In this document: piece after piece, positions 6,093 to 56,189 of the stretch | How the letters are laid out: each line of letters begins with the position of its first letter | How positions within the stretch are numbered: position 1 is the first letter of the stretch | Assembly: GCA_040756315.1 (NCBI GenBank) | Contig: JBFLZI010000003.1 | Span: 1-56,232, forward strand | Origin: Thermodesulfobacteriota bacterium | GTDB lineage: Bacteria; Desulfobacterota; Desulfobaccia; Desulfobaccales; 0-14-0-80-60-11 | Length of the DNA stretch: 56,232 nucleotides | Direction of reading: 5' to 3' | The notes under the pieces: model-generated | Databases searched by the model: none | The model's input: the letters and a program-made list of their open reading frames with translations, nothing else | What the model was told of the DNA's origin: nothing | Program-made: the position numbers and the translations under genes

Positions 6093-7076
6093 ATGAAGCT
6101 CACACTCCAGCGACTCTACCAGCTCTTCTCCCACGAGGATCGCCTTCTGATCCTGATTGATGCCGACCCTGACTCCATTGCCAGCGCCCTGGCCTTAAAA
6201 CGTCTCCTATGGCGCCGGCTTTCCGGCTGCGTCATCTCCCATGTCCGGCCCATCACCCGGCCCCAGAACGAGCGCATGGTGCGTCTTCTGGGGATCCGCA
6301 GCACCCCCTTTGCGGAGGTTCACCCGGAGGACTTCAACCGCCTGGCCCTGGTGGATTCCCAACCGGGCCATCACGCGGCTTTTGCCGACCGCAGCTATGA
6401 CTTAATCATCGACCATCACCCCCGCCTTCCCGAGAGCCAGGCCCACCTGGTGGATATACGCCCGGAATACGGCGCCACCGCCAGCATTATGACCGAATAC
6501 CTGCGGGCGGCCCGGATCAAACCTTCTCTCAAGTTGGCCACGGCCTTGTATTACGGTATTAAAACCGACACCGCCAACTTTGAGCGCCCCGCCATTGAAG
6601 CGGATATGCGGGCTTTCCACTATCTCTTCAACTTCACCCGCCGGGCCCTAGTGCGCCGCCTGGAATTCGCCGAACTGACTCTGCCTATGTTGAAATATTT
6701 CCAGGAAGGGCTCCGGCGTTTTCGCCAGCGCCACCACCGGGCCTATGTCTTCCTGGGCGCGGTGCCCAACCCGGACGTGCTGGTGATCCTGGCGGATTTT
6801 TTCCTGCGCCTGGAAGAGATTCACTGGACCATCGTGGGGGGAATCTTCGAGGACAACCTGGTAGTGATCTTTCGGAATGACGGCTTGCGCAAAAACGCCG
6901 GGCGGCTGGCGGAGCTGGCCTTCGGCAAACTGGGCTCAGCCGGCGGCCATGCCGCCAGCGCCCGGGCCGAAGTTCCTCTAGCCAACCTTAAGAATCAGAT
7001 GCCCCAGAAATCAACCCAGTGGCAACTGTGGCAGGACTTCCTCATGCAACAGGTGGAACGCCGGGGGCGTCTGTGA
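6093..7076 (+). CDS. DHH family phosphoesterase (NrnA/nanoRNase-like)
   Basis: DADPDSIASA, VDSQP, IIDHH, GIKTDT and AGGH motifs. Confidence 0.88.
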   Translation: MKLTLQRLYQLFSHEDRLLILIDADPDSIASALALKRLLWRRLSGCVISHVRPITRPQNERMVRLLGIRSTPFAEVHPEDFNRLALVDSQPGHHAAFADRSYDLIIDHHPRLPESQAHLVDIRPEYGATASIMTEYLRAARIKPSLKLATALYYGIKTDTANFERPAIEADMRAFHYLFNFTRRALVRRLEFAELTLPMLKYFQEGLRRFRQRHHRAYVFLGAVPNPDVLVILADFFLRLEEIHWTIVGGIFEDNLVVIFRNDGLRKNAGRLAELAFGKLGSAGGHAASARAEVPLANLKNQMPQKSTQWQLWQDFLMQQVERRGRL

Positions 7077-41879: not shown

Positions 41880-42302
41880 ATGAGATTGCTTTTTTACACC
41901 AGCCAAGGCGACCGCCGGATGAAATGGCTGGAGCAGAGACTGACCGGCTTCAGGCCATTAAACATTGAAATTTGCCGGGACCTGGACACCCTGGAGGGGG
42001 GCCTCCGGCAACTAGGCGGGGAGATGGTCTTAGCCGTGCTCCTTACCATCAGTCAGGAAGAACTCCAGGAGGTGATGACGCTTAAGCCCTGGCTCCAGGG
42101 CAAACCCTTAATCCTTATCTTGCCGGATAGAAATAGAGACACCATTGCCAAAGGCCACGTCCTGGCGCCCAGGTATTTAGCCGGCCTTCAAGATGACTTT
42201 CAAGAGATCTACGAAGTTTTAAATAAGATGTTGGAAATCTATTTGCGGCAAGATGAAGGTCATGGGCGCAGGCAAGTTAACGGCTTGGCCCCCTATTTAT
42301 AA
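41880..42302 (+). CDS. Hypothetical protein, possible degenerate receiver-like alpha/beta fold
   Basis: Alternating beta/alpha pattern (MRLLFY, LAVLL, PLILILPD, LAPRYL) without the acidic phospho-pocket; first gene behind the sigma54 promoter. Confidence 0.55.
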   Translation: MRLLFYTSQGDRRMKWLEQRLTGFRPLNIEICRDLDTLEGGLRQLGGEMVLAVLLTISQEELQEVMTLKPWLQGKPLILILPDRNRDTIAKGHVLAPRYLAGLQDDFQEIYEVLNKMLEIYLRQDEGHGRRQVNGLAPYL

Positions 42303-42393
42303 TACCGCACTTCCAGCGAGGAGGTGGCAGCAATAAAAATAAATCATCTAATCGGTAATTTAATCCCAGATTAATTACTTGAAGGAGATCAGG

Positions 42394-44400
42394 ATGAAAA
42401 ACATGAAACTGGGAACCAAAATGCTTCTGTCGTTTTCAGTGGTGGCGTTAATCACCCTAATACTGGGCATCGTGGGGTTCTATAGCACCACCCAGGGAGT
42501 TAAGGCCATCAACGAGATCGGCAGCGTACAACTGGTCAGTGTGGACAACTTGCTCATCCTTAAGGAGAACGCCGAAAACATCCGGGGCACGGTGCGTACC
42601 CTGGCCATTCCCGGCCTACCGGTGGAAGTCCGCCAACGGCAGTATAAGAACCTGGAAAAGGCCCGGCAAGAGTATGGAAAGGCGTGGAAGCTCTATGAGG
42701 CGCTGCCCCAAACGCCGGAGGTGGCCGAGTTGTGGAAACGGTTCGTCCTCGTCTGGAACGCCTGGCGGGAAGAGAACCACAAAGCCATGGAAATGTCCAA
42801 ACAAATCGACCGCAACGGCATTGCCGATCCGGATGCCTTGTCGGCCCGGTTGGAACAGTTCGCCAAGGACCACTACATCCTCGTGCAACGGGTTCTCCAT
42901 CTGCTGTACGTCAAGGACGCCATGTTCCAGGGGGGTGAGGACCATACCGCCTGCAACGCCGGCAAATGGCTGCCGACGTTCAAGACCGACAACGACAGAC
43001 TGGCTAGGGAGGTACAGGCGATTGTTGAACCTCACCGGCATTTCCATGAGGCGGTGGGGAAGATCAAGCAGCTGGTCGGCAGCGGTAAGAAGGGGGAAGC
43101 CCAAGGCATCTATGAACGGGAAATGATTCCGGCCATGCAGGAGGTTTTCCAGCACTTCGACGCCATGCTGGGAGTGGCGCATGAGTCGAGAGCCCTTTTC
43201 AATCAAATGCAGGAGCTGATCCTCGGTCCGGTGATGCAGAAACAGGGAGAAGCCATCAGGATGCTGGATAAGCTTGTACAGATCAGCCAAGATAAGGCCG
43301 CCACCGAAGTCCAGCAGTCCACCACCCAAGGGGCGTTCCTGAAAGTCTTATCCCTGATCGCCATGCTGCTAGGGGTAGCCCTGGCCTTTGCCCTGGGGAT
43401 ATTCATCACCCGGTCCATCACCAAGCCCATCCAGCGGATCATTGCCGGCCTGACTGAAGGCGCCGGTCAAGTGGCCTCTGCGTCCATCCAGGTCTCCTCG
43501 GCCAGCCAGTCCCTGGCCCAAGGCTCCTCCCAGCAAGCCGCGTCTTTGGAAGAGACCTCCTCCTCCCTGGAGGAGATGGCCTCCATGACCCGGGCCAACG
43601 CGGAAAACGCCCGCCAGGCCGATGCCCTGGTGGGAGAGGCGGCTCGGGTGGTGGACACGGCCAACACTTCCATGCACGAGCTCACCGTCTCCATGCGGGA
43701 GGTGTCCGCGGCCAGCCAGGAGACCGCCAAGATCATCAAGACTATTGATGAAATCGCCTTCCAGACCAATCTTTTGGCCTTGAACGCCGCGGTGGAAGCG
43801 GCCCGGGCCGGAGAGGCCGGAGCGGGCTTCGCCGTGGTGGCGGATGAGGTGAGAAGTCTGGCCATGCGGGCCGCGGAAGCCGCCAAAAACACCGCTGACC
43901 TCATCGAAGGGACCGTGAACCGGGTTAAGGAGGGCTCAAGCTTGGTGGACCGCACTGCGGAAGCCTTCAGCCAGGTCTCAGCCAGCACCGGTAAAGTCAA
44001 GGAACTGGTGGCGGAGATCGCCGCGGCCTCCAACGAACAGTCCCAGGGAGTGGACCAGATCAATAAGGCGGTGGGCGAGATGAATAACGTCACCCAACAG
44101 GTGGCGGCCAACGCTGAAGAAAGCGCCAGCGCCTCCGAGGAACTCAACGCCCAGTCCGAGCAGATGAAAGGGGTGGTGGGAGAACTGGTAGCATTGGTGG
44201 GTGGCGGGAGCGACGGTTTTCTCGATGACGGTCACAAGGTTAAAAGGAGCCAGAAGCTCCTCCGGACGGGAATAGGCACCAAGCGCCGGAGCATCGATCT
44301 CTCTAAACCGGAGAGCAAGCTTCTGGTTCACGATCAGAAGACCAACGGCGTTACCCCGGAGCAGATCATTCCCCTGGAAAGGGATTTCAAAGAGTTCTAG
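42394..44400 (+). CDS. Methyl-accepting chemotaxis protein with 4HB plus CZB-type sensor region and C-terminal pentapeptide
   Basis: Two TMs; H...V...[10 protein letters not shown]...HRHFH; [34 protein letters not shown]; ends DFKEF; ATG at 42394 after GAAGGAG. Confidence 0.93.
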
Positions 44401-44523
44401 GCTCGGATTTGCACCTCTCACGGCTTAACGGTATAGAAGCTACCAGATCCGACCAGGTAGGGGACCCAGGCACTGGAGGTCTGGGTCTCGAATGCCTTTA
44501 GCAGTAGAGGAGGAGATTGACCA

Positions 44524-45039
44524 ATGGCCAAAACGGCAGCAACGCTGAACCAGGAAAGCAGTGCCCTCCAGGCCCAGGAGGGCAAATATCTTACCTTTAA
44601 CCTGGACCAGGAAGGTTATGGCATCGAGATCCTGAAGGTGCGGGAGATCATCGGCATCATGAACATCACTCAGATTCCCCAGATGCCGCCTTACGTCAAA
44701 GGCTTGATCAACCTTAGGGGTAAAGTCATACCGGTCATTGACCTGCGCCTCAAATTTGACTTGGCGGGCGCGGCTTATAACGACCGGACCTGCATCATCG
44801 TGGTGGAGGTGGAGAATAACGGCGGGGCCACGCTCATGGGAGTGGTGGTGGATTCAGTCTCGGAGGTGTTGAATATCAATGCCGAAGATATTGAACCATC
44901 GCCCCGTTTCGGCACCCTAGTGGCCACCGACTATATTATGGGAATGGCTAAAACCAAAGGGGGCTTAAAAACCTTGCTGGACCTGCATCGGGTGCTGACC
45001 ACCAATGAGTTGGCCGCTCTTAAGGAGTTGGCTACTTGA
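44524..45039 (+). CDS. cheW: Chemotaxis coupling protein CheW
   Basis: YLTF.L..E.YGIEILKVREI, GLINLRGKVIPVIDLR and G.VVDSVSEV motifs. Confidence 0.95.
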   Translation: MAKTAATLNQESSALQAQEGKYLTFNLDQEGYGIEILKVREIIGIMNITQIPQMPPYVKGLINLRGKVIPVIDLRLKFDLAGAAYNDRTCIIVVEVENNGGATLMGVVVDSVSEVLNINAEDIEPSPRFGTLVATDYIMGMAKTKGGLKTLLDLHRVLTTNELAALKELAT

Positions 45040-45198
45040 ATTAAAGGGTCTGCAGGACGTTATCTATCAGTTGACCAAAATTACGGGGCTGAAATAGCTG
45101 TTGATAGTGAAGATAAATTATTCAGGACGGGGGCTGCCGGCCGGATAAAGGCGGCGTGACCTTAACTTAGTAAAAACAATAAATGCCCCACAGGAGGA

Positions 45199-45660
45199 AT
45201 GGCTATGGCTACGGTGGAATGGCTGACTTTTTCCGAAATGGCCCGCAAAGCCGCCATGACTGAATCGGAAGTCAGAAAAATAGTCAGAGACTTTGGCCAC
45301 ATACTCTGCGCCCGGCAATTCGGCGATATCATGAAATATCCCCTGGAGGCGGTGGAATTGATATCTCTGATCAAAAGACGCGCCGAGGAAGGCTGGTCTC
45401 TGGAGAATTTGCGAAGTCTCATAACCAAAGGTTACCGGGAGACTTTCGAGGTTAAAATGCCCAGTCTCCAGTCACTCTACGGCGAATTATTGCTGATGAT
45501 TAATGCCTTGATGGGGAATCTGATCCCGGCTTTTCAGAAAATGCAGGAGACGATGCAATTTATGGAGGACTTTATCGACGGGGTGACCCCCTTGATTGCC
45601 AGGGTGACGGCTCAAGAAGATGAGATCAGGGCCTTAAAGGCCAGGATCGGTGTGATTTAG
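45199..45660 (+). CDS. Hypothetical protein with N-terminal MerR-like HTH and coiled-coil tail
   Basis: LTFSEMARKAAMTESEVRK...Y..EAVELI..IK....EGWSLENL pattern; AGGAGG SD. Confidence 0.55.
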   Translation: MAMATVEWLTFSEMARKAAMTESEVRKIVRDFGHILCARQFGDIMKYPLEAVELISLIKRRAEEGWSLENLRSLITKGYRETFEVKMPSLQSLYGELLLMINALMGNLIPAFQKMQETMQFMEDFIDGVTPLIARVTAQEDEIRALKARIGVI

Positions 45661-45816
45661 CCGAAAGGGCCGGGAAAAACTGCCGGCTTTTGCCCTGGCC
45701 GTTCTCCGGTGGGTTCGCCGCGCCTCAGGGGCAGAAGTCTTGCGCCCGGGTACTGCCAGGCCAGCTCTGTATTAAACTGCTGGTCGGATTAAACTAAGAA
45801 ACTAAAGGAACGCACT

Positions 45817-46215
45817 ATGGACACCAAGATTGATTTCCGGACAAAAATATTGGTGGTGGACCATTTCTCCGCCATGAGAAAGATAATCCGCAATATTCTT
45901 AAGCAGATCGGCTTTAATGAGATCGCCGAGGCGGACGACGGTTCTTCCGCCCTGACGATCATCGACCAGGAAAACATCGGCTTGGTGCTGACTGACTGGC
46001 ATCTGCCCCAGATAAGTGGCCTTGAATTACTCAGGAGAATCCGTCACAACGACGCCACCCACCATATTCCGGTATTGATGGTGACCGCGGACGGCAAAAA
46101 AGAAAATATTGTGGAAGCGGTTAAGGCCGGAGTGGACAATTTCGTGGTCAAACCTTTCACCGCCAGTACCGTCAAGGAGAAGGTCGAGCAGGTCTTAGCC
46201 AAACGCCACCCTTAA
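45817..46215 (+). CDS. cheY: CheY-like single-domain response regulator
   Basis: KILVVDHFSAMRKII, LTDWHLP.ISGLELL, PVLMVTA and VKPFTA motifs; near MCP and cheW. Confidence 0.85.
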   Translation: MDTKIDFRTKILVVDHFSAMRKIIRNILKQIGFNEIAEADDGSSALTIIDQENIGLVLTDWHLPQISGLELLRRIRHNDATHHIPVLMVTADGKKENIVEAVKAGVDNFVVKPFTASTVKEKVEQVLAKRHP

Positions 46216-46267
46216 GTGGTGGAGAGACAGCACCGGATGGAAGTAAATGATCTCAAGTTATTAAAGA

Positions 46268-46399
46268 AGCGAGATTCTTCGCTCTATATGGAAATGTAGC
46301 GCCGCCGCCTCGGCGGCGCCTAAACCGCCAAGGGCGGCGGTTCTACAATTTCATGGTCTGTGGCGAGCTTTAGGTCGTGGTGGTTTGCTCAGGATGACA
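46268..46399. repeat. Nested REP-like cluster: GTAG...CTAC palindrome pair inside a split GAGATTCTTCGC...GCTCAGGATGACA repeat
   Basis: GTAGCGCCGCCGCCTCGGCGGCGC at 46296 through GGCGGCGGTTCTAC ending 46346; flanking halves at 46271 and 46387. Confidence 0.55.
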
Positions 46400-46437
46400 T
46401 TGAAAGCGTCCAAGAGGTTTTGCCCTAGCTTCCAAAT

Positions 46438-46527
46438 TACACCATTTTTACTTTCAAATGTTACAAATCATGCTTGCAACTTATTGATAAACTTTAATTT
46501 TTTAACCGAAAACTGAAAACGGTATTA
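46438..46527. repeat. Second (inverted) copy of the MITE-like element at 8924-9020
   Basis: ACCATTTTTACTTTCAAATGTTACAAATCATGCTTGCAACTTATTGATAA...AACCGAAAACTGAAAACGGTATTA aligns to the reverse complement of 8924-9020 with scattered mismatches. Confidence 0.75.
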
Positions 46528-46592
46528 GAGCGGCCGGTCCGGATCAGAAGCGGGTATCTCAAGGCCGTTCTTAAGGGGGATGATAAAAAATT

Positions 46593-46621
46593 TTGCTTTG
46601 TCAGATTAATTGACTTATAAT
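46593..46621 (+). promoter_or_regulatory. sigma70 promoter of the leader-mvhD-fdh operon
   Basis: TTGCTT (46593-98)-N17-TATAAT (46616-21). Confidence 0.75.
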
Positions 46622-46653
46622 TGCGAAAATTTTCCCAAAGGAGGTGATCCCAG

Positions 46654-46788
46654 GTGCATCGGCTCATAGCCATGGTTCGCAGAAAATCCTGAAGCCCAGG
46701 TATACGGGGGGTCTTGGCAAGACCCGCATTACCCAGCCGCTGGATGAGGCCGGGGCAGATCGCCTGGGATAAGGACCGCCAGAATTAA
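46654..46788 (+). CDS. Unannotated leader ORF with in-frame UGA (putative Sec at codon 13): MHRLIAMVRRKS(U)SPGIRGVLARPALPSRWMRPGQIAWDKDRQN
   Basis: Full anti-SD complement AAAGGAGGTGATCC at 46637-50; GTG at 46654; TGA at 46690-92; frame open to TAA at 46786-88. Confidence 0.6.
46709..46725 (+). promoter_or_regulatory. Bacterial SECIS-like hairpin
   Basis: GGGTCTT-GGC-AAGACCC, a perfect 7-bp stem with a G-first loop starting 23 nt after the UGA. Confidence 0.55.
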
Positions 46789-47045
46789 GTTCCTTTAAAC
46801 CTCGCTTTTTCCCCTTCCTCAGGCAAACCTCCGTTACCCGTCTTCACTCCAGCTTCTTTCATGGGACCAGCATACCTGGAGCCGGTTCCCGGCGGAAGAC
46901 CGTCCTTTTTCCCTGGTCAGGCGGTATTCGCCGGCTGTTCCCAGTTTACCTTTTGGCGGCGTTGAGGGTGATACAGCTCCCCTGACCCTTCTGCTTCAGC
47001 TTCCGGGGTGAAGTGTCTCATCTCCTCGCCATGAAGGAGTAGCGG

Positions 47046-47510
47046 ATGACTAAAGAATATTATCCCAAAGTTATCGGCTTCTGCTGCCGCTGGTGCTCCT
47101 ATGCCGGCGCGGACCTGGCCGGGGCCATGCGTCTGCAATATCCCGCCAATATCCGGATCGTCAAAGTGCCCTGCACCGGGCGGGTGGAAACTCTCAATTT
47201 GTTGCAAGCCTTTGAGGCCGGGGCCGACGCCGTCTTTGTTTCAGGCTGTCATGAAGGGGATTGCCATTATCTCACCGGCAACCTCTTTGCCCGGAAACGG
47301 GTGGCCCGGGTAAAAGAAATTCTGGCGGAGATAGGCCTGGAGCCGGAACGCCTGGAAATGTTTCACGTCTCGGCCTCGGAGGGGCCGAAATTCGCCGCCG
47401 TGGCTCGGGAGATGACCGAGCGGGCTTATAAGCTGGGGCCGAACCCGGCGAGGCGGGAAGCCAGACTAGCCTGGCGGGCCGGCGAACCGGCGGTTATTAT
47501 CACCGCCTGA
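47046..47510 (+). CDS. mvhD: Hydrogenase/Hdr-associated [2Fe-2S] subunit MvhD (FlpD), Cys form, copy 1
   Basis: FCCRWCSYAGADLAG, VPCTGRV, GADAVFVSGCHEGDCHY..GN and GLEPERLEM motifs. Confidence 0.92.
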   Translation: MTKEYYPKVIGFCCRWCSYAGADLAGAMRLQYPANIRIVKVPCTGRVETLNLLQAFEAGADAVFVSGCHEGDCHYLTGNLFARKRVARVKEILAEIGLEPERLEMFHVSASEGPKFAAVAREMTERAYKLGPNPARREARLAWRAGEPAVIITA

Positions 47511-47532
47511 AGCAATAGGGAAAGGAGAAGCA

Positions 47533-47997
47533 ATGGGTTCAGACTATTACCCGAAGATCTTGGGATTTTGTTGCCGCTGGTGCTCCTATGCCGGCGCGGA
47601 CCTGGCCGGGGCCATGCGCCTGCAATATCCTCCCTCCGTAAAAATCATGATGGTGCCCTGCACCGGGCGGGTGGACATCCTGCACCTGGTCAAGGCCTTT
47701 GAGGCGGGGGCGGACGCGGTCTTTGTCTCCGGTTGCCATGAGGGCGACTGCCACTATCTCACCGGCAATATCCAGGCCCGCAAGCGGGTGGACAAACTGA
47801 AAAAGGACCTGGCGGCCTTAGGCATTGAACCGGAGCGCCTGGAGATGTTCCACGTCAGTTCCGGGGAAGGCCCCAAATTCGCGGCGGTGTGCCGGGAGAT
47901 GACGGAGCGGGCCTTGAAGCTGGGTCCCAGCCCGGTGAGACGGGAAGCCCGCAAAGCCTGGGAAGCGGCGCAGCCAGCCGCGGCCACGGCTGGGTGA
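47533..47997 (+). CDS. mvhD: MvhD (FlpD), Cys form, copy 2
   Basis: Same motifs as copy 1; AAGGAG SD. Confidence 0.92.
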   Translation: MGSDYYPKILGFCCRWCSYAGADLAGAMRLQYPPSVKIMMVPCTGRVDILHLVKAFEAGADAVFVSGCHEGDCHYLTGNIQARKRVDKLKKDLAALGIEPERLEMFHVSSGEGPKFAAVCREMTERALKLGPSPVRREARKAWEAAQPAAATAG

Positions 47998-48072
47998 AGG
48001 CCAAACCCAGGTCGTAGGTTCGTATTGAGCTGGCTTTGAAAAGAAACTCAGAGAGTGAGGGGGACTTACCCT

Positions 48073-49347
48073 ATGCCGACGCCGTATGACGACATGTGGG
48101 AAAAATTGAACCTGGATTTGCCGGCCCACGAGGGGTTACTGCAAGTATTGGGCAGGTTTTACGGAGACATCTACCTGAGCCAGGAAGGCCGCCTGAAGGG
48201 TATGGAATACCTGGACTTTGTGCTCTCGGAGGTGCACGGCCTGCGCATCAAGGAACTCCAGGAGGCCAAGGCCCAAGGCCGTAAGATCATCGGCACCTTC
48301 TGCGTCTTTGTGCCGGAGGAACTGGTTCTGGCCGCGGACGCCGTCTGCGTGGGCCTCTGCGCCGGGGCCGAGATCGGCGCGGACGCGGCGGAAAAGATCC
48401 TGCCCCGGAACACCTGCGCCCTGATCAAGTCCTTCGTGGGCTTCAAACTGGCCCGCCTCTGCCCCTTCATCGAGTCCTGCGACCTGGTGGTGGGGGAGAC
48501 CACCTGCGACGGCAAAAAGAAGGCCTACGAAATCTTTGCCGACTACGCACCGGTGTACGTCATGGAGATTCCCCAAATGAAGCAGGCCTGCGACCGGGAC
48601 CTGTGGAAGGCGGAGATGGGGCGCTTTCAGGCCAAGATCGAAGAGATCACCGGCAAGACCATCACCGCCGCCAAACTGAAGGAAGCCATCCGGCTGGTGA
48701 ACGCCCGGCGACAGGTCTTACAGCGCCTGAACCGGCTCAGGGCCGTGGTGCCCACCCCCATCTCCGGGCGGGACGTGCTCCTTATCAATCAGATCAGCTT
48801 TTATGACGATCCGGTGCGCTTCACCGCCAAGATGGGGGAACTCTGCGACGAACTGGAAGAGAAGGTCAAGGCGGGCCGGGGTATAGTCCAGGCCGGGACG
48901 CCGCGTCTCATGCTTTCCGGCTGCCCCATGGCCGTGCCCAACTGGAAGCTGCCCTTCCTCATCGAGTCTTCCGGCGCGGTCATCGTGGGGGAAGAGTCTT
49001 GTATCGGCAGCCGCAATATCCGGGACCTGGTGGATGAAACCCCCGACACCCTAGAGGGGCTGTTGGACGCCCTGGTGGACCGTTACTTCAAGATTGACTG
49101 CGCCTGTTTCACCCCCAACGCGGAGCGCCTCACCCATATCGTGGACATGGCCCGGGACCTGAAAGTGAACGGCGTGGTCCACTACGGCCTCTCCTTCTGT
49201 CAGCCCTATGCCATCGAGGCTTTCAAGGTGGCGAAGGCCCTGGAAGCCGCCAAAATTCCGATGTTGGCCATCGAGACGGACTACAGCATGGAGGACGTGG
49301 AGCAGCTCAAGACTCGGGTGGAGGCCTTTCTGGAGATGCTGCACTGA
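48073..49347 (+). CDS. Double-cubane-cluster protein-like anaerobic reductase (2-hydroxyacyl-CoA dehydratase D/HgdB family)
   Basis: GTFCVFVPEE, VGLCAG, PRNTCALIKS, GETTCDGKKK, EESC.G.R, CACFTPN, FCQPY and IETDYS motifs; ATG at 48073. Confidence 0.82.
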   Translation: MPTPYDDMWEKLNLDLPAHEGLLQVLGRFYGDIYLSQEGRLKGMEYLDFVLSEVHGLRIKELQEAKAQGRKIIGTFCVFVPEELVLAADAVCVGLCAGAEIGADAAEKILPRNTCALIKSFVGFKLARLCPFIESCDLVVGETTCDGKKKAYEIFADYAPVYVMEIPQMKQACDRDLWKAEMGRFQAKIEEITGKTITAAKLKEAIRLVNARRQVLQRLNRLRAVVPTPISGRDVLLINQISFYDDPVRFTAKMGELCDELEEKVKAGRGIVQAGTPRLMLSGCPMAVPNWKLPFLIESSGAVIVGEESCIGSRNIRDLVDETPDTLEGLLDALVDRYFKIDCACFTPNAERLTHIVDMARDLKVNGVVHYGLSFCQPYAIEAFKVAKALEAAKIPMLAIETDYSMEDVEQLKTRVEAFLEMLH

Positions 49348-49359
49348 GGTGACGCTGCC

Positions 49360-49596
49360 ATGATTTCTGATAAGGCACCGGTCATTCCCCTGCACCTGCA
49401 CCCGGTATTTCAAGAGCGCCACCGGGTGAATGAACTGAAAAACGCATTGATGGCGGAAACCCTGGCTTACGTCCAGGTGGCCCTGGACAACGCGGCCGGA
49501 CCCGGCGGCGCTTCGCCCCGGGCAGTAAAAATCCTGGAACGGGCTCGCGCCCTTTTGGGAGAAGCCCGAGATCGGCTGGTGCTCGAGTTGTTGTAA
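49360..49596 (+). CDS. Small helical hypothetical protein
   Basis: 78 aa, GAGGTG SD, packed between the reductase and its activator. Confidence 0.5.
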   Translation: MISDKAPVIPLHLHPVFQERHRVNELKNALMAETLAYVQVALDNAAGPGGASPRAVKILERARALLGEARDRLVLELL

Positions 49597-49613
49597 CGGG
49601 TAAAAGGGCATTG

Positions 49614-50390
49614 ATGGGAAACAAGAGCCTGGTAGCCGGTTTGGACATCGGCTCCCGTTCCATTGAACTGGCGGTCTTGGAGGGAGACCGCCTGGTGGAT
49701 TGGGCCAAGGTGCCCACCACCTTCGACCCTCTGGCCCAGTGCCGTCGCCTGTTGAAAGACGTGCGGGCGGAGAGAATGGTAGCCACGGGCTATGGCCGCA
49801 AGCTGGCGCTGGAAAGTCTGAAAGAGCATAGAGTTACGGCCATTACAGAAATTCAGGCTTACGCCCTGGGCGCCCGGCGTCTGGCTCCGGAAACCAGGAC
49901 CGTCCTGGACATCGGCGGCCAGGACACCAAGGTCATCGCCCTGGCCCCGGACGGCAAGGTGGCCAGGTTTGAAATGAACGACCGTTGCGCCGCGGGCACC
50001 GGCAAATTCCTGGAATTCATGGCCCTGGCCCTGCACCTTCCTTTGGAGGAGTTCGGCAGCTTTGCCCTCCAGGGGGAGAGGCGCATCCAGATCAGCAGCA
50101 TGTGCACGGTATTTGCCGAAAGCGAGGCTACCAGCCTCATGGCCCGGGGGGAGGCTCCGGCCAACATCGCCCTGGGGCTGCACCTGGCCATTGTCCAGCG
50201 CACCCTGGCCATGCTCCGGCGGATGGGGGAGGAGCCGCCTCTCCTCTTTGCCGGGGGAGTGGCTCACAACGTCTGCGTCCGGGCCTTGCTGGAAGAGGGG
50301 CTGGGCCAAGAGGTCATCGTGCCCCCCAACCCCGACTTGGTGGGGGCTTTGGGCGCGGCGCTTTATGGGAAAAATCGACAGTCAACCTGA
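49614..50390 (+). CDS. ATP-dependent [4Fe-4S] activator/reductase (HgdC/BadF-BcrAD ASKHA family)
   Basis: GLDIGS, ATGYGR, LDIGGQDTK, MNDRCAAGTGKFLE, SSMCTVFAESE, GGVA.N and GALGAAL motifs. Confidence 0.92.
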   Translation: MGNKSLVAGLDIGSRSIELAVLEGDRLVDWAKVPTTFDPLAQCRRLLKDVRAERMVATGYGRKLALESLKEHRVTAITEIQAYALGARRLAPETRTVLDIGGQDTKVIALAPDGKVARFEMNDRCAAGTGKFLEFMALALHLPLEEFGSFALQGERRIQISSMCTVFAESEATSLMARGEAPANIALGLHLAIVQRTLAMLRRMGEEPPLLFAGGVAHNVCVRALLEEGLGQEVIVPPNPDLVGALGAALYGKNRQST

Positions 50391-50466
50391 GGGAAGACCC
50401 TCAGATAATCGAGACAGAGCAACAAAATTCCGAAAAATTTCTCGTTTTTCGAAAGGAGATCTCGAC

Positions 50467-50685
50467 ATGCCTCTGATCACCGTCAAATTAATTGAAGGCG
50501 TCTATTCCGGGGAGCAGAAGAAGGAAATGATCAAACGGCTTACCGACACCATGGTGGCTCTGGAGGGAGAGCACATGCGCCCGGTCACCTGGGTGGTCAT
50601 CGAAGAAGTCAAGAGCGGCGACTGGGGTGTAGGGGGCAAGGCCTTTTCCTGTGCGGACGTCAAAGCCCTGGCAGGGGATAAGTAA
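50467..50685 (+). CDS. 4-oxalocrotonate tautomerase family protein
   Basis: MPLITVKLIEG (Pro-1), QKKEMI..LTD.M and V.IEEV..GDWGVGG motifs; AAAGGAG SD before ATG 50467. Confidence 0.88.
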   Translation: MPLITVKLIEGVYSGEQKKEMIKRLTDTMVALEGEHMRPVTWVVIEEVKSGDWGVGGKAFSCADVKALAGDK

Positions 50686-52725
50686 GTGGAATCCCGCTTT
50701 GTCCTCACCACTTGCCCCTACTGCGGCTGCGGCTGCGGCATCCTCCTGGAAGTCATGGATGGCCGGCTCGCCGGCTCCTGGCCGGTAAAAACCCATGGGG
50801 TGAGCCAGGGGAGCCTCTGCCTCAAGGGCTGGAGTTCCCATGAGTTCGTGCAGAGCGAGCCGCGCCTTAAGCAGCCGCTCACGCGCCAAAACGGCGACCT
50901 GGTTCCCGCCACCTGGGAGGAAGCCCTGGACCGGGCGGCCCAAGGGTTAAAAGGGGTTTTGGACCGCCACGGGCCGGCCGCGGTGCAGGTATTGTCCTCC
51001 GCCAAGATCACCAATGAAGAAAACTTTCTCATGAACAAATTTGCCCGGGCGGTCATCGGCACCAACAATATCGACCATTGCGCCCGCCTCTGTCACGCCT
51101 CCACCGTCGTGGGTCTGGCCGGGGCCTTCGGTTCCGGGGCCATGACCAACTCCATCGTGGACCTGGAGAATGCCGGGACCATCCTGGTCATCGGCTCCAA
51201 TACCACCGAGGGCCACCCTGTTGCCGCCAAGTGGATTTTCCGGGCTATTGAGCAGGGCGCAAAATTGCTGGTGGCCGATCCCCGCCGGATTCAATTGTCG
51301 GACCTGGCGGAAGTGGTGGTGCAGCAGCGCCCGGGCACTGACGTGGCCCTGATTAACGGCATGATGCATCTCATTATCAAGGAAGGCTGGCACGACCGGG
51401 TGTACGTCAAGGAGCGCACCGAGGGCTTTGAGGCCCTGGCCGCCAAACTGGAGGAGTATCCGCCGGCGAAGGTGGCGGCCATTACCGGGGTGGAGCCCGC
51501 CGAGTTGCGCCGCCTGGCGGAAATTTACGCCACCCACAAGCCCAGCGCCATTGTCTACTCCATGGGCATCACCCAACACATCACCGGGGTGGACAACGTC
51601 AAGTCCCTGGCGAATTTGGCCATGCTCACCGGCAACGTGGGCGTCTCGGGGGGCGGGGTGAACGCGCTCCGGGGACAGAACAACGTCCAGGGCGCCTGCG
51701 ACATGGGCGCGCTGCCCAATGTCTTTTCCGGCTATCAGGCGGTGGCGGACGAGGCGGCCAACGCCAAGTTCTCCCAGGCCTGGGGCCGGGACCTCCCCAA
51801 ACAGCCGGGCCTGACCCTGACGGACATGTTCAACGCCATTGATGCCGGTAAGATCAAGGCCTTGTATATCGTGGGGGAGAACCCCATGGTCACCGAGCCG
51901 GACCTGCATCACGCCGGGGCCGCGCTGAAGAAGCTGGAAGTGCTCATCGTCCAGGATATTTTTCTTTCCGAAACGGCCCGGTTGGCCCAGGTGGTGCTGC
52001 CGGGCGCTTCCTTTGCGGAAAAGAGCGGCACCTTCACCAACACGGAACGGCGGGTGCTGTTGGTGCGCCAGGCCATCCCGCCGGTGGGGGGCGCCCGCCC
52101 GGACTGGCAAATCATCCAGGACCTGGCCGCCCGCCTGGGCTATCCCATGAATTACGCCGGGCCGGAGGAGATTTTTGAGGAAATCCGCACCCTCACCCCC
52201 AGCTACGCGGGCATGACTTACGAAAGGCTTAAAGCCCAAGGGTTGCAGTGGCCCTGTCCCACCCCGGAACATCCCGGCACGCCGTATCTCCACAAAGACC
52301 GCTTCACCCGGGGGAAGGGGCTGTTTCAGGCCATCGACTACAAGCCGCCGGCGGAAGTTGAAGACAAGGAATACCCCATGCTGCTCAGCACCGGGCGCTC
52401 CTTCGCCCATTTCCATTCCGGCACCATGACCCGGGTCTCACCCACCCTGCACCATGAGGTGAAGACGGGGTATGTGGAAATCAACCCGGAAGACGCGGAG
52501 CGGCTGGGAGTGGAAGACGGGGAGCCGGTGCAGGTCAGCTCCCGCCGGGGAAACATCCGCATTCCGGCCAAAATCAGCCAGCGGGTGAACCGGGGCGTGG
52601 TTTTCATTCCCTTTCATTTTGCCGAGTGCGCCGCCAACGTCCTCACCAACCCGGCCCTGGACCCGGTGGCCAAGATTCCGGAATTCAAGGTCTGCGCCGT
52701 CAAGGTGGAAAAAATGGCGGCATAA
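50686..52725 (+). CDS. fdhF: Cytoplasmic Mo/W-bisPGD formate dehydrogenase alpha subunit (FdhF-like), Cys form, copy 1
   Basis: TTCPYCGCGC...LCLKG, DHCARLCHAST, LRGQNNVQGACDMG and PEFKVCAV motifs; no Tat signal. Confidence 0.9.
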   Translation: MESRFVLTTCPYCGCGCGILLEVMDGRLAGSWPVKTHGVSQGSLCLKGWSSHEFVQSEPRLKQPLTRQNGDLVPATWEEALDRAAQGLKGVLDRHGPAAVQVLSSAKITNEENFLMNKFARAVIGTNNIDHCARLCHASTVVGLAGAFGSGAMTNSIVDLENAGTILVIGSNTTEGHPVAAKWIFRAIEQGAKLLVADPRRIQLSDLAEVVVQQRPGTDVALINGMMHLIIKEGWHDRVYVKERTEGFEALAAKLEEYPPAKVAAITGVEPAELRRLAEIYATHKPSAIVYSMGITQHITGVDNVKSLANLAMLTGNVGVSGGGVNALRGQNNVQGACDMGALPNVFSGYQAVADEAANAKFSQAWGRDLPKQPGLTLTDMFNAIDAGKIKALYIVGENPMVTEPDLHHAGAALKKLEVLIVQDIFLSETARLAQVVLPGASFAEKSGTFTNTERRVLLVRQAIPPVGGARPDWQIIQDLAARLGYPMNYAGPEEIFEEIRTLTPSYAGMTYERLKAQGLQWPCPTPEHPGTPYLHKDRFTRGKGLFQAIDYKPPAEVEDKEYPMLLSTGRSFAHFHSGTMTRVSPTLHHEVKTGYVEINPEDAERLGVEDGEPVQVSSRRGNIRIPAKISQRVNRGVVFIPFHFAECAANVLTNPALDPVAKIPEFKVCAVKVEKMAA

Positions 52726-52826
52726 ATGCATGTGGCTAATCAAACTAACAACAAATGTTTGAATCACCTAAGTAGCGGATTCATTTTTGCCGCTTCTTTC
52801 AAAGGATAACGGATAAGGAGACTGAC

Positions 52827-54863
52827 ATGGATTTCCGCTCGGTTGTCACCACCTGCCCCTATTGCGGCGTAGGTTGCAACTTAATCTTCCAGGTGCTGGA
52901 CGGGCAGATCATCGACACCCTGGCCGCGAAGACCGGACCGTCCAATGAAGGGAGGCTCTGTATCAAGGGTTGGAGCGTGCATGAATTTATCCAGCATAAA
53001 GACCGCCTCACCAAACCCCTCATCCGGCGGGGCGGCTCTTTGCAGGAAGCCACCTGGGATCAGGCTTTGGATTTGGCTGCGTCCGAGTTGACCAGGCTCA
53101 AAGAGACCTATGGGCCGGAGAGCGTCGCGTTTGTGGGGTCGGCCCGCTGTCCCAATGAAGAGACCTATGTCTTTCAAAAATTCGCCCGGGCTGTTTTCGG
53201 CCACAATCATGTGGATCACTGCGCCCGTCTCTGTCACGCCCCTACGGTGGCCGGGTTGGCTGTCTCCTTTGGGAGCGGAGCCATGACCAACTCCTTTGCC
53301 GAACTGGAACAGGCCAAGTGCATTTTAGTAATCGGCTCCAACACCACCGTCTCCCACCCTATGGCGGGCATGCGCCTAATGCGGGCCCAGGCCAACGGCG
53401 GCAAGCTCATGGTGGCCGACCCCCGGAAGACCCAGATCGCGAAGTTGGCCGACCTGCACGTGCAGCAGAATCTGGGGACGGACGTGGCCCTGATCAACGG
53501 CCTGATGCACGTCATCTATAAGAACGGCTGGCATAACCAGGCCTTTATCGAAGAGCGCACGGAAAACTTCCCCGCCCTGGTGGAGATAATCGAACAATTC
53601 CCTCCTGAGCGGGTCTCGGAGATCACCGGCGTAGCCGTAGCGGATATCGTCCAGATGGCCGAATGGTACGCCAAGTCGCCGGCCAGCGCCATTGTTTACG
53701 TCTTGGGGATCACCCAGCACAGCACCGGCACGGACAACGTCAAGAGTCTGGCCAACCTGGCCATGCTCTGCGGCCAGATCGGCAGGCCCTCCACCGGAGT
53801 CAATCCCATCCGGGGCCAGAACAACGTGCAGGGGGCCTGCGACATGGGCGCACTGCCCAATGCCTTCCCCGGCTATCAATACGTGAGTGCGCCGGAGTGT
53901 GTGGAGAAATTTGAAAAAGCCTGGAACGCCAAGCTTTCCGGTTCTCCGGGACTCACCATGGTGGAGCAGATCGAAGCCATCCATCAAGGTAAATTCAAGG
54001 GCCTGGTGGTCTTCGGGGCCAACCCGGCGGTGAGCTACCCCAACGTCAACCGGGTGCAGGAGGCTCTGGAATCCTTGGAATTCTTGCTGGTCCTGGATAT
54101 TTTCCCCACATCCACCACGGCCCTGGCCCACGTGGTGCTCCCCGGCGCCTCATTTGCGGAAACGGACGGCACCTTCAGCAGCTCGGAACGCCGGGTGCAG
54201 CGGGTGCGGCAGGCCATCGAGCCTATCGCCGGCAAGGCCAACTGGCAGATTATCCCGGAACTCTCCAGTCGGTTAGGTTATCCCATGCACTATCGGTCCG
54301 CAGAGGAAATTTTCGACGAGATGGCCAGCCTGACTCCGGCTTACGGGGGCATGAGTTACCCTCGCCTGGAGGAGAAAGGACTCTGCTGGCCCTGTCCTAC
54401 TCCGGACCATCCCGGCACTCAGTATTTGCACAAAGACAGGTTTACCCGGGGCCTGGGACTCTTTCAAGCCATCGACTACCGCCCGCCCGCGGAAGGCCCG
54501 GACGCCGACTATCCTTTCTGGCTGACCACCGGGCAAATCTTCTCCCAGTATCTTACCGGCACTATGACCCGGCGCTGCCCCACCCTGCACCAGGAAAACC
54601 CTGAGGTCTTCATCGAAATCAACCCCCAGGATGCCGAACGTCTGCAGATTGAACCGGGAGAAAGTATTCGGGCCAGGAGTCGCCGGGGCAGCATTGAGGT
54701 CAAGGCCTGGGTAACCGACGCGATAAAGCCCGGCGTGGTTTTTATCCCCATGCACTATCTGGAGAACGCCGCCAACCGTCTGACCAACGCGGCCTTGGAC
54801 CCCATCACGAAAACGCCGGAATATAAGGTCTGCGCCGTGAAATTAGAGCGCTTAGCCGCTTAA
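52827..54863 (+). CDS. fdhF: Cytoplasmic formate dehydrogenase alpha subunit (FdhF-like), Cys form, copy 2
   Basis: TTCPYCGVGC...LCIKG, DHCARLCHAPT, IRGQNNVQGACDMG and PEYKVCAV motifs; AAGGAG SD. Confidence 0.9.
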   Translation: MDFRSVVTTCPYCGVGCNLIFQVLDGQIIDTLAAKTGPSNEGRLCIKGWSVHEFIQHKDRLTKPLIRRGGSLQEATWDQALDLAASELTRLKETYGPESVAFVGSARCPNEETYVFQKFARAVFGHNHVDHCARLCHAPTVAGLAVSFGSGAMTNSFAELEQAKCILVIGSNTTVSHPMAGMRLMRAQANGGKLMVADPRKTQIAKLADLHVQQNLGTDVALINGLMHVIYKNGWHNQAFIEERTENFPALVEIIEQFPPERVSEITGVAVADIVQMAEWYAKSPASAIVYVLGITQHSTGTDNVKSLANLAMLCGQIGRPSTGVNPIRGQNNVQGACDMGALPNAFPGYQYVSAPECVEKFEKAWNAKLSGSPGLTMVEQIEAIHQGKFKGLVVFGANPAVSYPNVNRVQEALESLEFLLVLDIFPTSTTALAHVVLPGASFAETDGTFSSSERRVQRVRQAIEPIAGKANWQIIPELSSRLGYPMHYRSAEEIFDEMASLTPAYGGMSYPRLEEKGLCWPCPTPDHPGTQYLHKDRFTRGLGLFQAIDYRPPAEGPDADYPFWLTTGQIFSQYLTGTMTRRCPTLHQENPEVFIEINPQDAERLQIEPGESIRARSRRGSIEVKAWVTDAIKPGVVFIPMHYLENAANRLTNAALDPITKTPEYKVCAVKLERLAA

Positions 54864-54920
54864 GGCGCCAATTGTTTGACCTAAAATTTCCGAGAACCCG
54901 TAGGAAAAGGAGAAATCGCC

Positions 54921-56189
54921 ATGCAACCACTGGATCTCTCTGATCTGCCTGAGAGGCGCCGGAAGAGCATCTTTCGGGACATTATTTCCGAATCTCACTT
55001 GACCGCCTGCTTTACCTGCGGCACCTGCTCCGGGGGCTGCCCCTTGACCGGCATGGAAAGCAGCAAGGATGAGGGCCTGGACGCCCGCAAAGTCATTCGT
55101 ATGGCCGCGTTCGGCCTGGACCAGGAAGTCATCGACTCCCGCTTCGTCTGGTTCTGCACCGGCTGCCAACGCTGCGAGATGGGCTGCCCCATGGGGGTCA
55201 AGCTGGTAAAGGTGTGGATGGCGGCCAAGGCGGCCCGGCCCCGGGACAAGGTGCCCGGCGTCCTCCACAAGGGCGTGGATATGTGTATCCGCACCGGGAA
55301 CAACATGGGCATTCCGGAGGAAGATTACGTCACCCTGCTGGAGGAACTGGGGGAAGAATTGGCGGAGGAGTGCTGCCCCGGTTTCGTTACGCCGGTGGAG
55401 AAGGTGGGCGCGGACTATATCCATTTTCAGAATTCCAAGGAAGCCTATGCCGAACCCGACGACATGAAGTGGTGGTGGAAGATCTTTTACGCGGCTAAAG
55501 CGGACTGGACCACTTCCTCGAAAAACTGGGAGTCGGTGGATTGGGGGATTTTTACTGCCAACATGGAGGCCAGCAAAGAGATCGCCCGGCGCAAGGTGGA
55601 GAACATGAAGCGCCTGAAGGCCAAAACCTTTATTCTGCCGGACTGCGGCGGGGCTTCCTACGGCACCCGCATCAACCTGGAGAAATACTTTAAAGATGAG
55701 TTCGGTCCCAAGACCGGCCACAACTACGTGTATTTCTTTGATGTGCTGCTTAAGTGGCTGGAAGAGGGCCGCATCAAGGTGGACAAGAGCGTCCACGCGG
55801 ACCGCATCGTCACCTGGCACGACTCCTGTAAACACATGCGCTCGGTGTACCTGACCTTCGGGGACGACTCCAACCTGGAGAAGCCCCGGAAGATTCTCTC
55901 ATACCTCATAGATATGAACAACTATCGGGAAATGCCCCACAACCGGTTGGAAAGCTACTGTTGCGGCGCCGGCTCCGGGAACTGGCCCGGACCCTTTGAG
56001 GCCGAAAAGACCGAACACGGCGGCTTCAAGGCCCGGGACATCCAGGCCACCGGCGCGGACCTGGTGGTGGCCGGCTGCTCCAACTGCCGGGACCAGATTA
56101 TGAAGAACCTGAAGGTGAAGTATAAGTTGGACATCGAAGTGAAATATATCTGGGAAATGGTGGCGGACGCCTTGATCCTGGAGAGTTGA
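54921..56189 (+). CDS. HdrC/HdrD(GlpC)-like Fe-S protein: 2x[4Fe-4S] ferredoxin domain plus CCG domain
   Basis: CFTCGTCSGGCP, CTGCQRCEMGCP, PDCGG, WHDSC, CCGAGSG and CSNC motifs. Confidence 0.85.
   Translation: MQPLDLSDLPERRRKSIFRDIISESHLTACFTCGTCSGGCPLTGMESSKDEGLDARKVIRMAAFGLDQEVIDSRFVWFCTGCQRCEMGCPMGVKLVKVWMAAKAARPRDKVPGVLHKGVDMCIRTGNNMGIPEEDYVTLLEELGEELAEECCPGFVTPVEKVGADYIHFQNSKEAYAEPDDMKWWWKIFYAAKADWTTSSKNWESVDWGIFTANMEASKEIARRKVENMKRLKAKTFILPDCGGASYGTRINLEKYFKDEFGPKTGHNYVYFFDVLLKWLEEGRIKVDKSVHADRIVTWHDSCKHMRSVYLTFGDDSNLEKPRKILSYLIDMNNYREMPHNRLESYCCGAGSGNWPGPFEAEKTEHGGFKARDIQATGADLVVAGCSNCRDQIMKNLKVKYKLDIEVKYIWEMVADALILES

Follow-up and report, generated by a model that had tools for sequence, protein, structure and literature searches.

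Leader peptides that couple translation to transcription are known from several bacteria. The trpL and hisL leaders of enteric bacteria are ribosome-mediated transcription attenuators, and in leaders of the tnaC and mgtL/corL types the translation of an upstream open reading frame (uORF) governs the access of Rho to a rut (Rho utilization) site. For selenium, the regulators named in the literature covered are the archaeal HrsM and a predicted bacterial LysR_Se subfamily; HrsM is a LysR-type repressor of Cys isogenes in Methanococcus, with an effector given as not known in the parts of the reports consulted (PMC11097638, PMC5322559). In the fdhF(Sec) gene of Treponema primitia, failed decoding of a UGA uncouples translation from transcription and alters the downstream transcript, and the authors state, in the available text, that attenuation by a rare amino acid, like a synthetic case that they cite, had no report in nature (PMC3892789, which also summarises trp attenuation). 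In the 5' untranslated region (UTR) of Escherichia coli selAB, a hairpin of the selenocysteine (Sec) insertion sequence (SECIS) type serves as a sensor of SelB-GTP-Sec-tRNA for gene regulation; it lies 3 nt from the selA Shine-Dalgarno sequence and, in the part of the report available, blocks translation initiation without UGA decoding (bioRxiv 10.64898/2026.03.03.709296). Here we analyse a stretch of 56,232 nucleotides (nt) from a Thermodesulfobacteriota bacterium (contig JBFLZI010000003.1, positions 1 to 56,232 of the forward strand; hereafter the window), in which the region preceding an mvhD-fdhA operon had been proposed, in an initial annotation, to be an attenuator that senses Sec through a uORF with an in-frame UGA and a SECIS-like hairpin. 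Judged from its sequence, this region is the 5' leader of the operon and a member of a conserved family of cis-regulatory leaders; it is very probably a selenium-related cis-regulatory element, and sensing probably takes place via Sec decoding of the uORF UGA, which would make it a selenium-repressed, Sec-decoding leader-peptide attenuator.

The leader resembles trpL and hisL in having a short leader ORF with a strong ribosome-binding site, a regulatory codon tied to the supply of one charged tRNA, mutually exclusive helices and a leader stop whose position matters, and a plentiful amino acid would likewise mean OFF. Unlike in trpL and hisL, however, the UGA codon would need SelB and a SECIS, and the decision would lie between recoding and termination rather than between fast and slow elongation; a conserved intrinsic terminator was not found in the leaders scanned, a C-rich, rut-like arm standing in its place; and the regulon consists of uptake genes and Sec-free isoenzymes, not of the biosynthesis genes of that amino acid. 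As in the tnaC and mgtL/corL leaders, the uORF lies beside a C-rich, G-poor stretch and the position of the ribosome would decide on Rho loading, but the signal would be Sec-tRNA instead of tryptophan, proline or Mg2+, and Rho enters here through base composition only. The selAB element as described in the available text differs from the leader hairpin, which comes after an in-frame UGA within a uORF, about 320 nt 5' of the putatively regulated gene, and precedes starvation-response genes. In T. primitia, the UGA and SECIS lie inside the selenoprotein gene, and lack of selenium truncates that gene's own transcript, according to the text available (PMC3892789), whereas the leader has a dedicated uORF and is proposed to act with the opposite sign and on other genes. 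The physiological logic and the regulon are similar to those described for HrsM, with Cys isoforms and yedE up when selenium is scarce; however, HrsM is an archaeal DNA-binding protein and the leader would be a cis-acting RNA with a uORF in bacteria. No description of a Sec-uORF leader was found in the full-text literature searched, supplements and subscription journals being outside its scope, and the terms 'leader' and 'riboswitch' are absent from the available text of a 2026 review of the prokaryotic selenoproteome (PMC13188914).

Anatomy of the leader

The features of the leader and the operon it precedes are as follows.

46593 to 46621, forward strand: promoter as read from the sequence, with -35 TTGCTT (46593-98), a 17-nt spacer and -10 TATAAT (46616-21)
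46637 to 46650, forward strand: 14-nt Shine-Dalgarno sequence AAAGGAGGTGATCC, about 10-20 nt from the predicted RNA 5' end
46647 to 46656, forward strand: segment A ATCCCAGGTG, spanning the start codon and pairing with segment C
46654 to 46692, forward strand: uORF, with GTG (46654-56) and 11 further codons (MHRLIAMVRRKS), then TGA (46690-92), the candidate Sec codon
46659 to 46663, forward strand: 5' strand of helix P2, TCGGC, pairing with GCTGG
46693 to 46788, forward strand: read-through extension of the uORF, 31 sense codons and TAA (46786-88)
46695 to 46702, forward strand: segment B CCCAGGTA, a second copy of the A motif, 2 nt past the TGA
46709 to 46725, forward strand: SECIS-like hairpin GGGTCTT-GGC-AAGACCC, first loop G at 46716
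46739 to 46776, forward strand: G-rich arm, comprising GCTGG (3' strand of P2, 46739-43), CGCCTGGGAT (segment C, 46761-70) and AAGGAC
46789 to 46853, forward strand: C-rich, G-poor arm, a candidate rut site, with TCCAGC (46848-53) at its 3' end
46873 to 46913, forward strand: segment F TACCTGGAG (partner of B) and a weak terminator-like hairpin (46891-46904), then CTTTTTCCCT
47046 to 56189, forward strand: operon putatively regulated by the leader, from mvhD to an hdrD/hmcF-like gene

When we re-read the sequence, the promoter, Shine-Dalgarno sequence, GTG, TGA, hairpin and TAA were all found where the initial annotation had placed them; its count of twelve codons after the GTG was off by one, as 11 follow and the uORF has 12 sense codons with the GTG included. 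Exact copies of AGGAGGTGAT occur twice in the window, at 42067 (within an ORF) and 46639, and only the leader copy extends to 14 nt, giving a sequence that we take to be the complement of the 16S rRNA 3' end. The promoter was not listed in a consensus promoter scan of the window, because TTGCTT agrees with TTGACA at only three of six positions; in an alignment, -35 (TTGATT/TTGACT) and -10 (TATAAT) boxes line up across 19 relatives. Among the homologous elements described below, a TAYAMT box is present at -60 to -20 in 38 of 61, GGAGG at -18 to -4 relative to the GTG in 57 of 62, and AGGAGGTGAT in 45 of 62. Between the TGA and the first loop G of the hairpin are 23 nt, the GG being nt 27-28 from the U of the UGA. 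The 3' end of the hairpin is 320 nt from the ATG of mvhD (47046), and 257 nt, previously estimated at about 260, separate the in-frame TAA of the uORF from the same ATG. An ORF of 42 aa in another frame (46644-46772) has its start inside the Shine-Dalgarno sequence.

A single TGA followed by such a hairpin is only mildly unusual and proves little, because hairpins satisfying loose criteria (stem of at least 7 bp, loop of 3-5 nt beginning with GG, 22-30 nt from the T of the TGA) follow 467 of the 89,647 TGA triplets in the genome (0.52%).

Conservation and distribution

The decisive evidence is conservation, and it establishes that the leader is real and well conserved. In a DNA search, positions 46615-46905 of the window matched 19 of 60 genomes of relatives with 70-78% identity (E<=1e-5), all in one family, and several of these genomes had two or three copies. 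An alignment of 20 sequences showed that the -35 and -10 boxes, the Shine-Dalgarno sequence, a uORF of constant length, the TGA and a hairpin, near-invariant at its apex and covarying in its stem, are kept, together with a second CCCAGGTG motif right after the TGA and a CGCCTGGGA box that has a pyrimidine-rich stretch downstream of it. A pattern scan with one genome per species (GGTG, 30-nt spacing, TC-TGA, a gap of 19-21 nt and CTTGGYAAG) gave at least 119 stretches, many of them chance matches; among the matches listed were 56 further usable elements, all from metagenome-assembled genomes labelled Desulfobaccales, Syntrophobacterales, 'Deltaproteobacteria' or Thermodesulfobacteriota. The pooled set comprised 76 elements, 62 of them distinct, and the detailed counts given here rest on these 62, which come partly from the matches listed. 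With eight divergent homologs (four found by BLAST only, from other genera, and four covariance-model matches), the homologous leaders number about 70.

The initial annotation had predicted that the arrangement of Shine-Dalgarno sequence, uORF, UGA and hairpin would be conserved in related genomes, with stem covariation but poor conservation of the peptide. The arrangement, including the TGA, was found in 20/20 BLAST-derived, 62/62 distinct and 8/8 divergent leaders, covariation is seen in the stems, and past the UGA the peptide shows little conservation. The 20 BLAST-derived sequences and the eight divergent homologs were found without the pattern, and in them the GTG start, the TGA and the hairpin are all kept.

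The strict pattern occurred in 50 of the 83 genomes of the order, namely 49 of 68 in family f1 and the window's own genome, with none in the 14 genomes of family f2, and a reversed-pattern control gave no matches. Carrier genomes have one to five copies. With a covariance model (R1), the element was detected in four of four sampled f1 genomes and in one of 146 genomes of other families, the latter copy (L176, contig C183:695-832 of genome G218, reverse strand, 79.5 bits) being on a short contig that ends before any downstream gene. The range of the leader is thus one uncultured Desulfobaccales family and one genome of another family. The same model revealed a second, divergent leader in the window's genome, outside the window (C44:13488-13629, reverse strand, 80.1 bits), with the uORF MRPRLIKTQAKS-UGA, the apex CCUGGACCAGG and a read-through frame of 44 codons; it lies directly 5' of yedF, whose product is 64% identical to the YedF of locus L076. 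Searches against Rfam found no family at its gathering score in the window and nothing relevant at E<=10 in 45500-47600.

At locus L099, a leader on the reverse strand (6386-6454) and another on the forward strand (6724-6792) lie back to back at a spacing of about 340 nt, one of them 5' of a gene for the small subunit of a NiFe hydrogenase and the other 5' of genes for a Tat-signal solute-binding protein and a rhodanese. The same arrangement was seen twice in contig C2 of genome G070.

The hairpin and the selenocysteine machinery

In the bSECISearch model, a bacterial SECIS has one or more unpaired G residues in its apical loop, 16-37 nt from the UGA. The leader hairpin lies 3' of an in-frame UGA and has the loop GG(C/U) 24 nt on; its apex, C(C/T)TTGG(C/T)AAG(G/A), is near-invariant, whereas the lower stem covaries (AU 33, GC 24 and GU 5 at one pair) and the hairpin as a whole is 93.0% paired in the 62 sequences. 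In the eight divergent homologs the first loop G, as counted by eye, is 26-27 nt from the U of the UGA. Comparison with true SECIS elements, which the initial annotation had advised, showed that the apex resembles those of the MvhD-Sec genes of the same genome, which read ACCU-GGC-AGGU or ACCU-GGA-(A/C)GGU, where the GG occupies nt 24-28 counted from the U; in the FdhA elements, the loops are GGUCU or GGGCU, at nt 22-26. Overall, the GG is at nt 22-28 in the seven native elements and at nt 27-28 in UCUU-GGC-AAGA of the leader. Rfam SECIS models did not match the leader at E<=10, but this silence is uninformative because the models miss five of the seven native elements: of the seven, SECIS_3 picked up just the FdhA pair, with scores of 44.7 and 39.6 bits that stay under its cut-off of 63. 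We infer that the leader hairpin is a SECIS-like element and a putative binder of SelB for Sec insertion.

The genome carries the Sec machinery on which the proposal depends, with selB (359 bits), selA (593 bits) and selD (381 bits), the last with an in-frame TGA of its own. The only candidate for tRNA-Sec in the genome (C5:23765-23855) has a UCA anticodon and a long variable arm and scores just under the Rfam cut-off. At least seven selenoprotein genes have an in-frame TGA, encoding proteins of the MvhD type (on contigs C100, C13 (two) and C43), the FdhA type (C39 and C65) and an HdrD-like type (C181).

The uORF and its UGA

In the uORF, Arg is the third residue in 58 of the 62 elements and Pro the fourth in 43, with four synonymous Pro codons in use; Lys11 is present in 61 (AAA in 42 and AAG in 19) and Ser12 in all 62 (TCC in 57, TCT in three and TCG in two). 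In the homologs found without the pattern, the residue preceding the UGA is Ser, Cys or Pro. In genus g5 (L169 and L177), the uORF has 10 codons instead of 12, owing to an in-frame deletion of 6 nt, with the spacing of UGA and hairpin unchanged. Translation of the uORF is supported because codons 4, 11 and 12 vary synonymously and the g5 deletion is in frame, and by these signs the uORF is translated. The first UGA is never replaced by UAA or UAG in the roughly 70 leaders, whereas the second stop uses all three codons. The conserved Lys-Ser before the UGA and the fixed length of the uORF may bear on whether the ribosome is released or stalls for long at the UGA. We rejected the possibility of the leader being a piece of an MvhD selenoprotein gene, since no MvhD motif is present in the uORF peptide and unrelated genes follow the leader.

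The read-through frame

Past the UGA, the frame stays open until a stop 84-129 nt further on in all 62 elements, but in the other frames at least 84 nt are open in only 12 (+1) and 34 (+2) of them. The stop of the read-through frame falls in one alignment column in 18 of the 20 close relatives, with TAA, TAG and TGA interchanging there, and the frame is restored by compensated indels, such as a -1/+1 pair in L031, and by a +3 insertion in L035. The read-through peptide, in contrast, is unrelated between subgroups beyond the residues encoded by the hairpin, and covarying changes in the stem swap dissimilar residues (e.g., GG to LR, or P to F or L). Because the peptide is not conserved and the stem changes swap residues, it is the translation of the extension, not its product, that appears to be selected, although the constraint on this translation does not seem absolute.

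RNA architecture

Folding of the 62 sequences by RNAalifold predicted, besides the hairpin, a long-range helix between segments A (CCAGGUG) and C (CGCCUGG) and the helix P2 between UCGGC (codons 2-4) and GCUGG. Helix A:C is 97.3% paired, with one column pair represented by AU 29, GU 12, UG 9 and CG 6, and P2 is 93.9% paired; all five measures of the whole structure beat 500 of 500 shuffles, and slid registers pair to only 29-59%. Segment C can alternatively form a helix with segment B (B:C, 82.1% paired), in which column 148 of C, the one that covaries in A:C, covaries too (AU 33, CG 15 and GU 8). As A:C and B:C share strand C, they are mutually exclusive, and since both have nevertheless been kept in evolution, they bear the signature of a switch. 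Segment C has a downstream partner in every subgroup, and in group-wise folds segment B also pairs with TACCTGG at 46873-79 (segment F), B:F closing the domain. A UCGGCC:GGCCGG helix suggested by an early RNAalifold fold failed inspection, the 62-sequence fold giving UCGGC:GCUGG.

The base composition changes along the leader. On average over the 62 elements, G makes up 37-44% of 40-nt windows starting at +60 to +80, whereas windows starting at +120 to +180 have 33-40% C and 13-18% G, and the C-rich stretch starts at the read-through stop. The read-through frame covers precisely the G-rich arm, which would be translated only if the UGA is read. In the 100 nt past the stop, C is at least 1.5 times as frequent as G in 48 of 61 elements, against a genome background of 29.1% C and 29.3% G. 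In RNAalifold folds of the subgroups, the G-arm is base-paired to the C-arm and the stop codon lies close to the apex; in group I this pairing comprises 29 pairs and is 95.5% paired. Constrained minimum free energy folds with 'ribosome footprints' were too noisy for choosing between models and served only to spot the G-arm:C-arm pairing. A rho gene is present in the genome (718.5 bits).

Genes downstream of the leader

In 59 of the 62 stretches, the leader lies directly 5' of its target genes and on the same strand; the other three were too short or unmatched. In the window, Pfam and NCBIfam searches identified the following genes.

47046 to 47510 and 47533 to 47997, forward strand: two mvhD genes (MvhD/VhuD-like)
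48055 to 49347, forward strand: double-cubane-cluster reductase gene (NF040772)
49611 to 50390, forward strand: activase gene (TIGR00241)
50686 to 52725 and 52827 to 54863, forward strand: two fdhA genes
54921 to 56189, forward strand: hdrD/hmcF-like gene (HmcF/DsrK-like)

The initial annotation had called this a Cys-homolog operon, and its genes do correspond to Cys homologs of selenoproteins encoded elsewhere in the genome: they have Cys at the Sec-equivalent sites, TGA-bearing paralogs are present on contigs C100, C13, C43, C39, C65 and C181, and the two FdhA proteins share 72% and 77% identity with their Sec counterparts on C39 and C65. Among the genes downstream of the leaders in general, all Sec-equivalent positions covered by alignments are Cys, i.e., 29/29 and 27/27 in MvhD, 4/4 in FdhA, 7/7 in HdrD-like proteins and 5/5 in the NDCSMC motif of HdrA. 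The first gene downstream is distributed over the 62 leaders as follows.

MauE/DoxX: 19, usually followed by a rhodanese lipoprotein, YedF, an MsbA-like ABC protein or the double-cubane pair
MvhD: 14
Double-cubane reductase: 6
HdrA: 6
YedE: 5
CbiR-like TIM barrel, then an ApgM-like enzyme: 3
HdrD-like: 2
YedF: 2
NiFe hydrogenase small subunit: 1
Tat-signal solute-binding protein: 1
Not assigned (too short or unmatched): 3

YedE (TIGR04112, 481 bits against a cut-off of 200) and YedF (TIGR03527, 201 bits against 110) were assigned by NCBIfam, the Se_S_carrier domain was confirmed downstream of leaders by Pfam, and a g5 copy of the leader is located 5' of yedE-yedF. In selenium-starved Methanococcus maripaludis, yedE is up by 5.28 log2, a molybdate-type binding protein is also up, and Cys-containing isoforms take over from selenoproteins, as reported in the available part of PMC11097638. 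By analogy, the leader regulon mirrors this selenium-starvation response.

The double-cubane reductase (NF040772) and the activase (TIGR00241) are found under the leader in 14 of the 62 stretches. A passage in the accessible text of Lin et al. matches this pair, and its recurrence suggests an unrecognised role in selenium handling. The commonest first target is the combination of MauE/DoxX and a rhodanese lipoprotein (L076, 2125-3280, and 18 other loci); this rhodanese resembles the domains of TsoB selenoproteins (NF045694, 107 bits, far below the cut-off), and an in-frame TGA was not seen in it. The CbiR-like TIM barrel and the ApgM-like metalloenzyme (TIGR00306, 329 bits) occur together at L072 (973-3485), L075 and L108, and we know of no link between this pair and selenium.

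Proposed mechanism and alternative explanations

We propose that transcription would start just 5' of the very strong Shine-Dalgarno sequence and that a ribosome would translate the 12-codon uORF until it reaches the UGA and the SECIS-like hairpin. With SelB-GTP-Sec-tRNA(Sec) present, i.e., under selenium sufficiency, the UGA would be read as selenocysteine, and the ribosome would proceed for about 31 more codons across the G-rich arm to the stop at the apex of the G-arm:C-arm hairpin; ribosomes on the G-arm would keep the C-rich arm unpaired, so that Rho could load and the operon would be OFF. When Sec-tRNA is lacking, translation would end or stall at the UGA, the G-arm would pair with the C-arm and mask it, and transcription would proceed into the selenium-uptake genes and the Cys backup enzymes (ON). 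In a possible third state, segment A and UCGGC would pair with the G-arm, closing the uORF start and competing with the C-arm for the G-arm; this may make the outcome depend on the first ribosome coupled to transcription, or it may mean OFF as long as no ribosome occupies the start site. In this scheme, four points are predictions: that Sec is inserted, that SelB binds, in which direction the operon is regulated, and that Rho takes part. That a dedicated uORF with its own SECIS gauges UGA-recoding capacity, for which SelB, Sec-tRNA(Sec) and therefore selenophosphate are required, with termination versus read-through switching via Rho a selenium-starvation regulon of YedE/YedF uptake genes, rhodaneses, a double-cubane reductase and Cys isoforms of MvhD, HdrA, FdhA and a hydrogenase, is a proposal towards which we lean slightly on balance; the details of Rho and the G-arm within it are tentative and somewhat doubtful. 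The leader has the short ORF with a regulatory codon, apparently translated and 5' of an operon, that is typical of attenuators, and the computational checks set out with the original proposal of a Sec-sensing attenuator, on Sec machinery, conservation and covariation, all turned out in its favour, with none refuting it.

Several observations weigh against this proposal. The tRNA-Sec candidate scores 46.6 bits against a cut-off of 47, has an aberrant, A/U-rich 5' half and was not called by ARAGORN, whereas the tRNA-Sec of the relatives G015, G019 and G070 scores 75-77 bits; the candidate may reflect an assembly problem or be a 3' remnant. The presence of selB in 74 of the 83 genomes of the order, across all genera, gives no discriminating association because carriers and non-carriers of the leader have it alike. 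Most of the 62 elements were found with a pattern that fixed the very features compared, so that their invariance is partly circular. As for the read-through frame, two of the 20 relatives have an uncompensated +1 indel with the stop 12 nt later, the G218 copy reads for 68 codons into the C-rich arm, showing that the stop position is not strict, and the G-rich composition partly explains why the frame is open, the +2 frame being open in 34 of 62. The covariation support for the G-arm:C-arm pairing is weak, with double changes at four pairs only, a level that 14 of 500 shuffles reach, and the structure was derived from the same sequences that were used in its test. Finally, a scan of the 62 leaders found no intrinsic terminator at a conserved position, so the dependence on Rho rests on base composition; a C-containing hairpin with a weak U-rich tail was seen in four members of group II only, and the weak terminator-like hairpin of the window (46891-46904) is not at that position in the other elements scanned.

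Among other explanations, the hairpin might act as a SelB operator without decoding, binding SelB-GTP-Sec-tRNA and shifting the fold of the leader, with the UGA as the plain stop of a leader peptide. The resemblance of the apex to native SECIS elements and the selenium-related regulon would fit, and an element of E. coli selAB that binds SelB and has a regulatory role is described in the accessible text of bioRxiv 10.64898/2026.03.03.709296. Such an operator would, however, leave unexplained the open in-frame extension in 62/62 elements, the compensated indels and the interchange of stop codons in one column, as well as the constant spacing of 26-27 nt between UGA and loop, which matches decoding geometry; moreover, the hairpin is about 320 nt from the ribosome-binding site of the regulated gene rather than adjacent to it as in selAB, and we regard this explanation as unlikely. 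A riboswitch, or a site for another factor, is similarly improbable. Here a small molecule (e.g., a selenium or sulfur metabolite) or a protein would be sensed and the uORF would be part of the expression platform, as might be expected of a highly structured leader of about 300 nt with covarying alternative helices, and UCCUGA, which can pair with the following CCAGG, could be fixed for reasons of RNA structure. Yet the absence of UAA and UAG at the first stop, when the second one accepts all three codons, the SECIS-like apex at SECIS-like spacing and the conserved read-through frame are at odds with it, and the lack of an Rfam match points away from known aptamer families, though the aptamer could be a new one.

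Two further explanations were considered, the first of which involves no selenium sensing. The leader could be a 5' stabiliser of the mRNA, analogous to the STAB-SD elements of Bacillus, in which a strong Shine-Dalgarno sequence and a short ORF hold a ribosome against decay from the 5' end. The perfect 14-nt Shine-Dalgarno sequence close to the predicted 5' end and the prevalence of GGAGG in the homologs agree with such a role, which could coexist with Sec-dependent attenuation; as the sole function it is very improbable, since the conserved and covarying structure that extends for about 250 nt past the uORF, the invariance of UGA and hairpin and the restriction to selenium-related operons would go unexplained. 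Least probable of all, in our estimate, is a gene for a small selenoprotein, 44-52 residues long and functional in itself, on the same transcript as the operon. All the parts of such a gene are there (Shine-Dalgarno sequence, start codon, in-frame UGA, SECIS-like hairpin and open frame to a stop), but conservation around and after Sec is lacking, the peptide being unrelated between subgroups and its residues swapped by stem changes; the uncompensated frameshift is tolerated in two of 20 relatives; and the abundance of Arg, Gly and Pro in the product is what translation of a GC-rich structured RNA would give.

If Sec-decoding attenuation is indeed the mechanism, we know of no earlier sensor of selenium in bacteria that acts in cis, and of no earlier case in which Sec recoding serves regulation. 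By reading out the capacity for Sec decoding, it would provide a concrete, testable mechanism for switching between selenoenzymes and their Cys backups, and classic attenuation would come to include a recoded stop codon and the 21st amino acid. It would also delimit a selenium-starvation regulon computationally, in which YedE/YedF, DUF3343, the MauE/DoxX-rhodanese pairs, the double-cubane reductase with its activase and the ApgM-like enzyme, all of them poorly understood, would be candidates for functions in selenium handling. A compact genetic switch responsive to selenium or SelB might be of use in engineering.

Genes upstream of the leader

The genes directly 5' of the leader (42379-46215 of the window) are of the chemotaxis type and encode a methyl-accepting protein (4HB_MCP and CZB domains), CheW and a CheY-like receiver; among them is also a gene for a protein of 153 aa without a family match.

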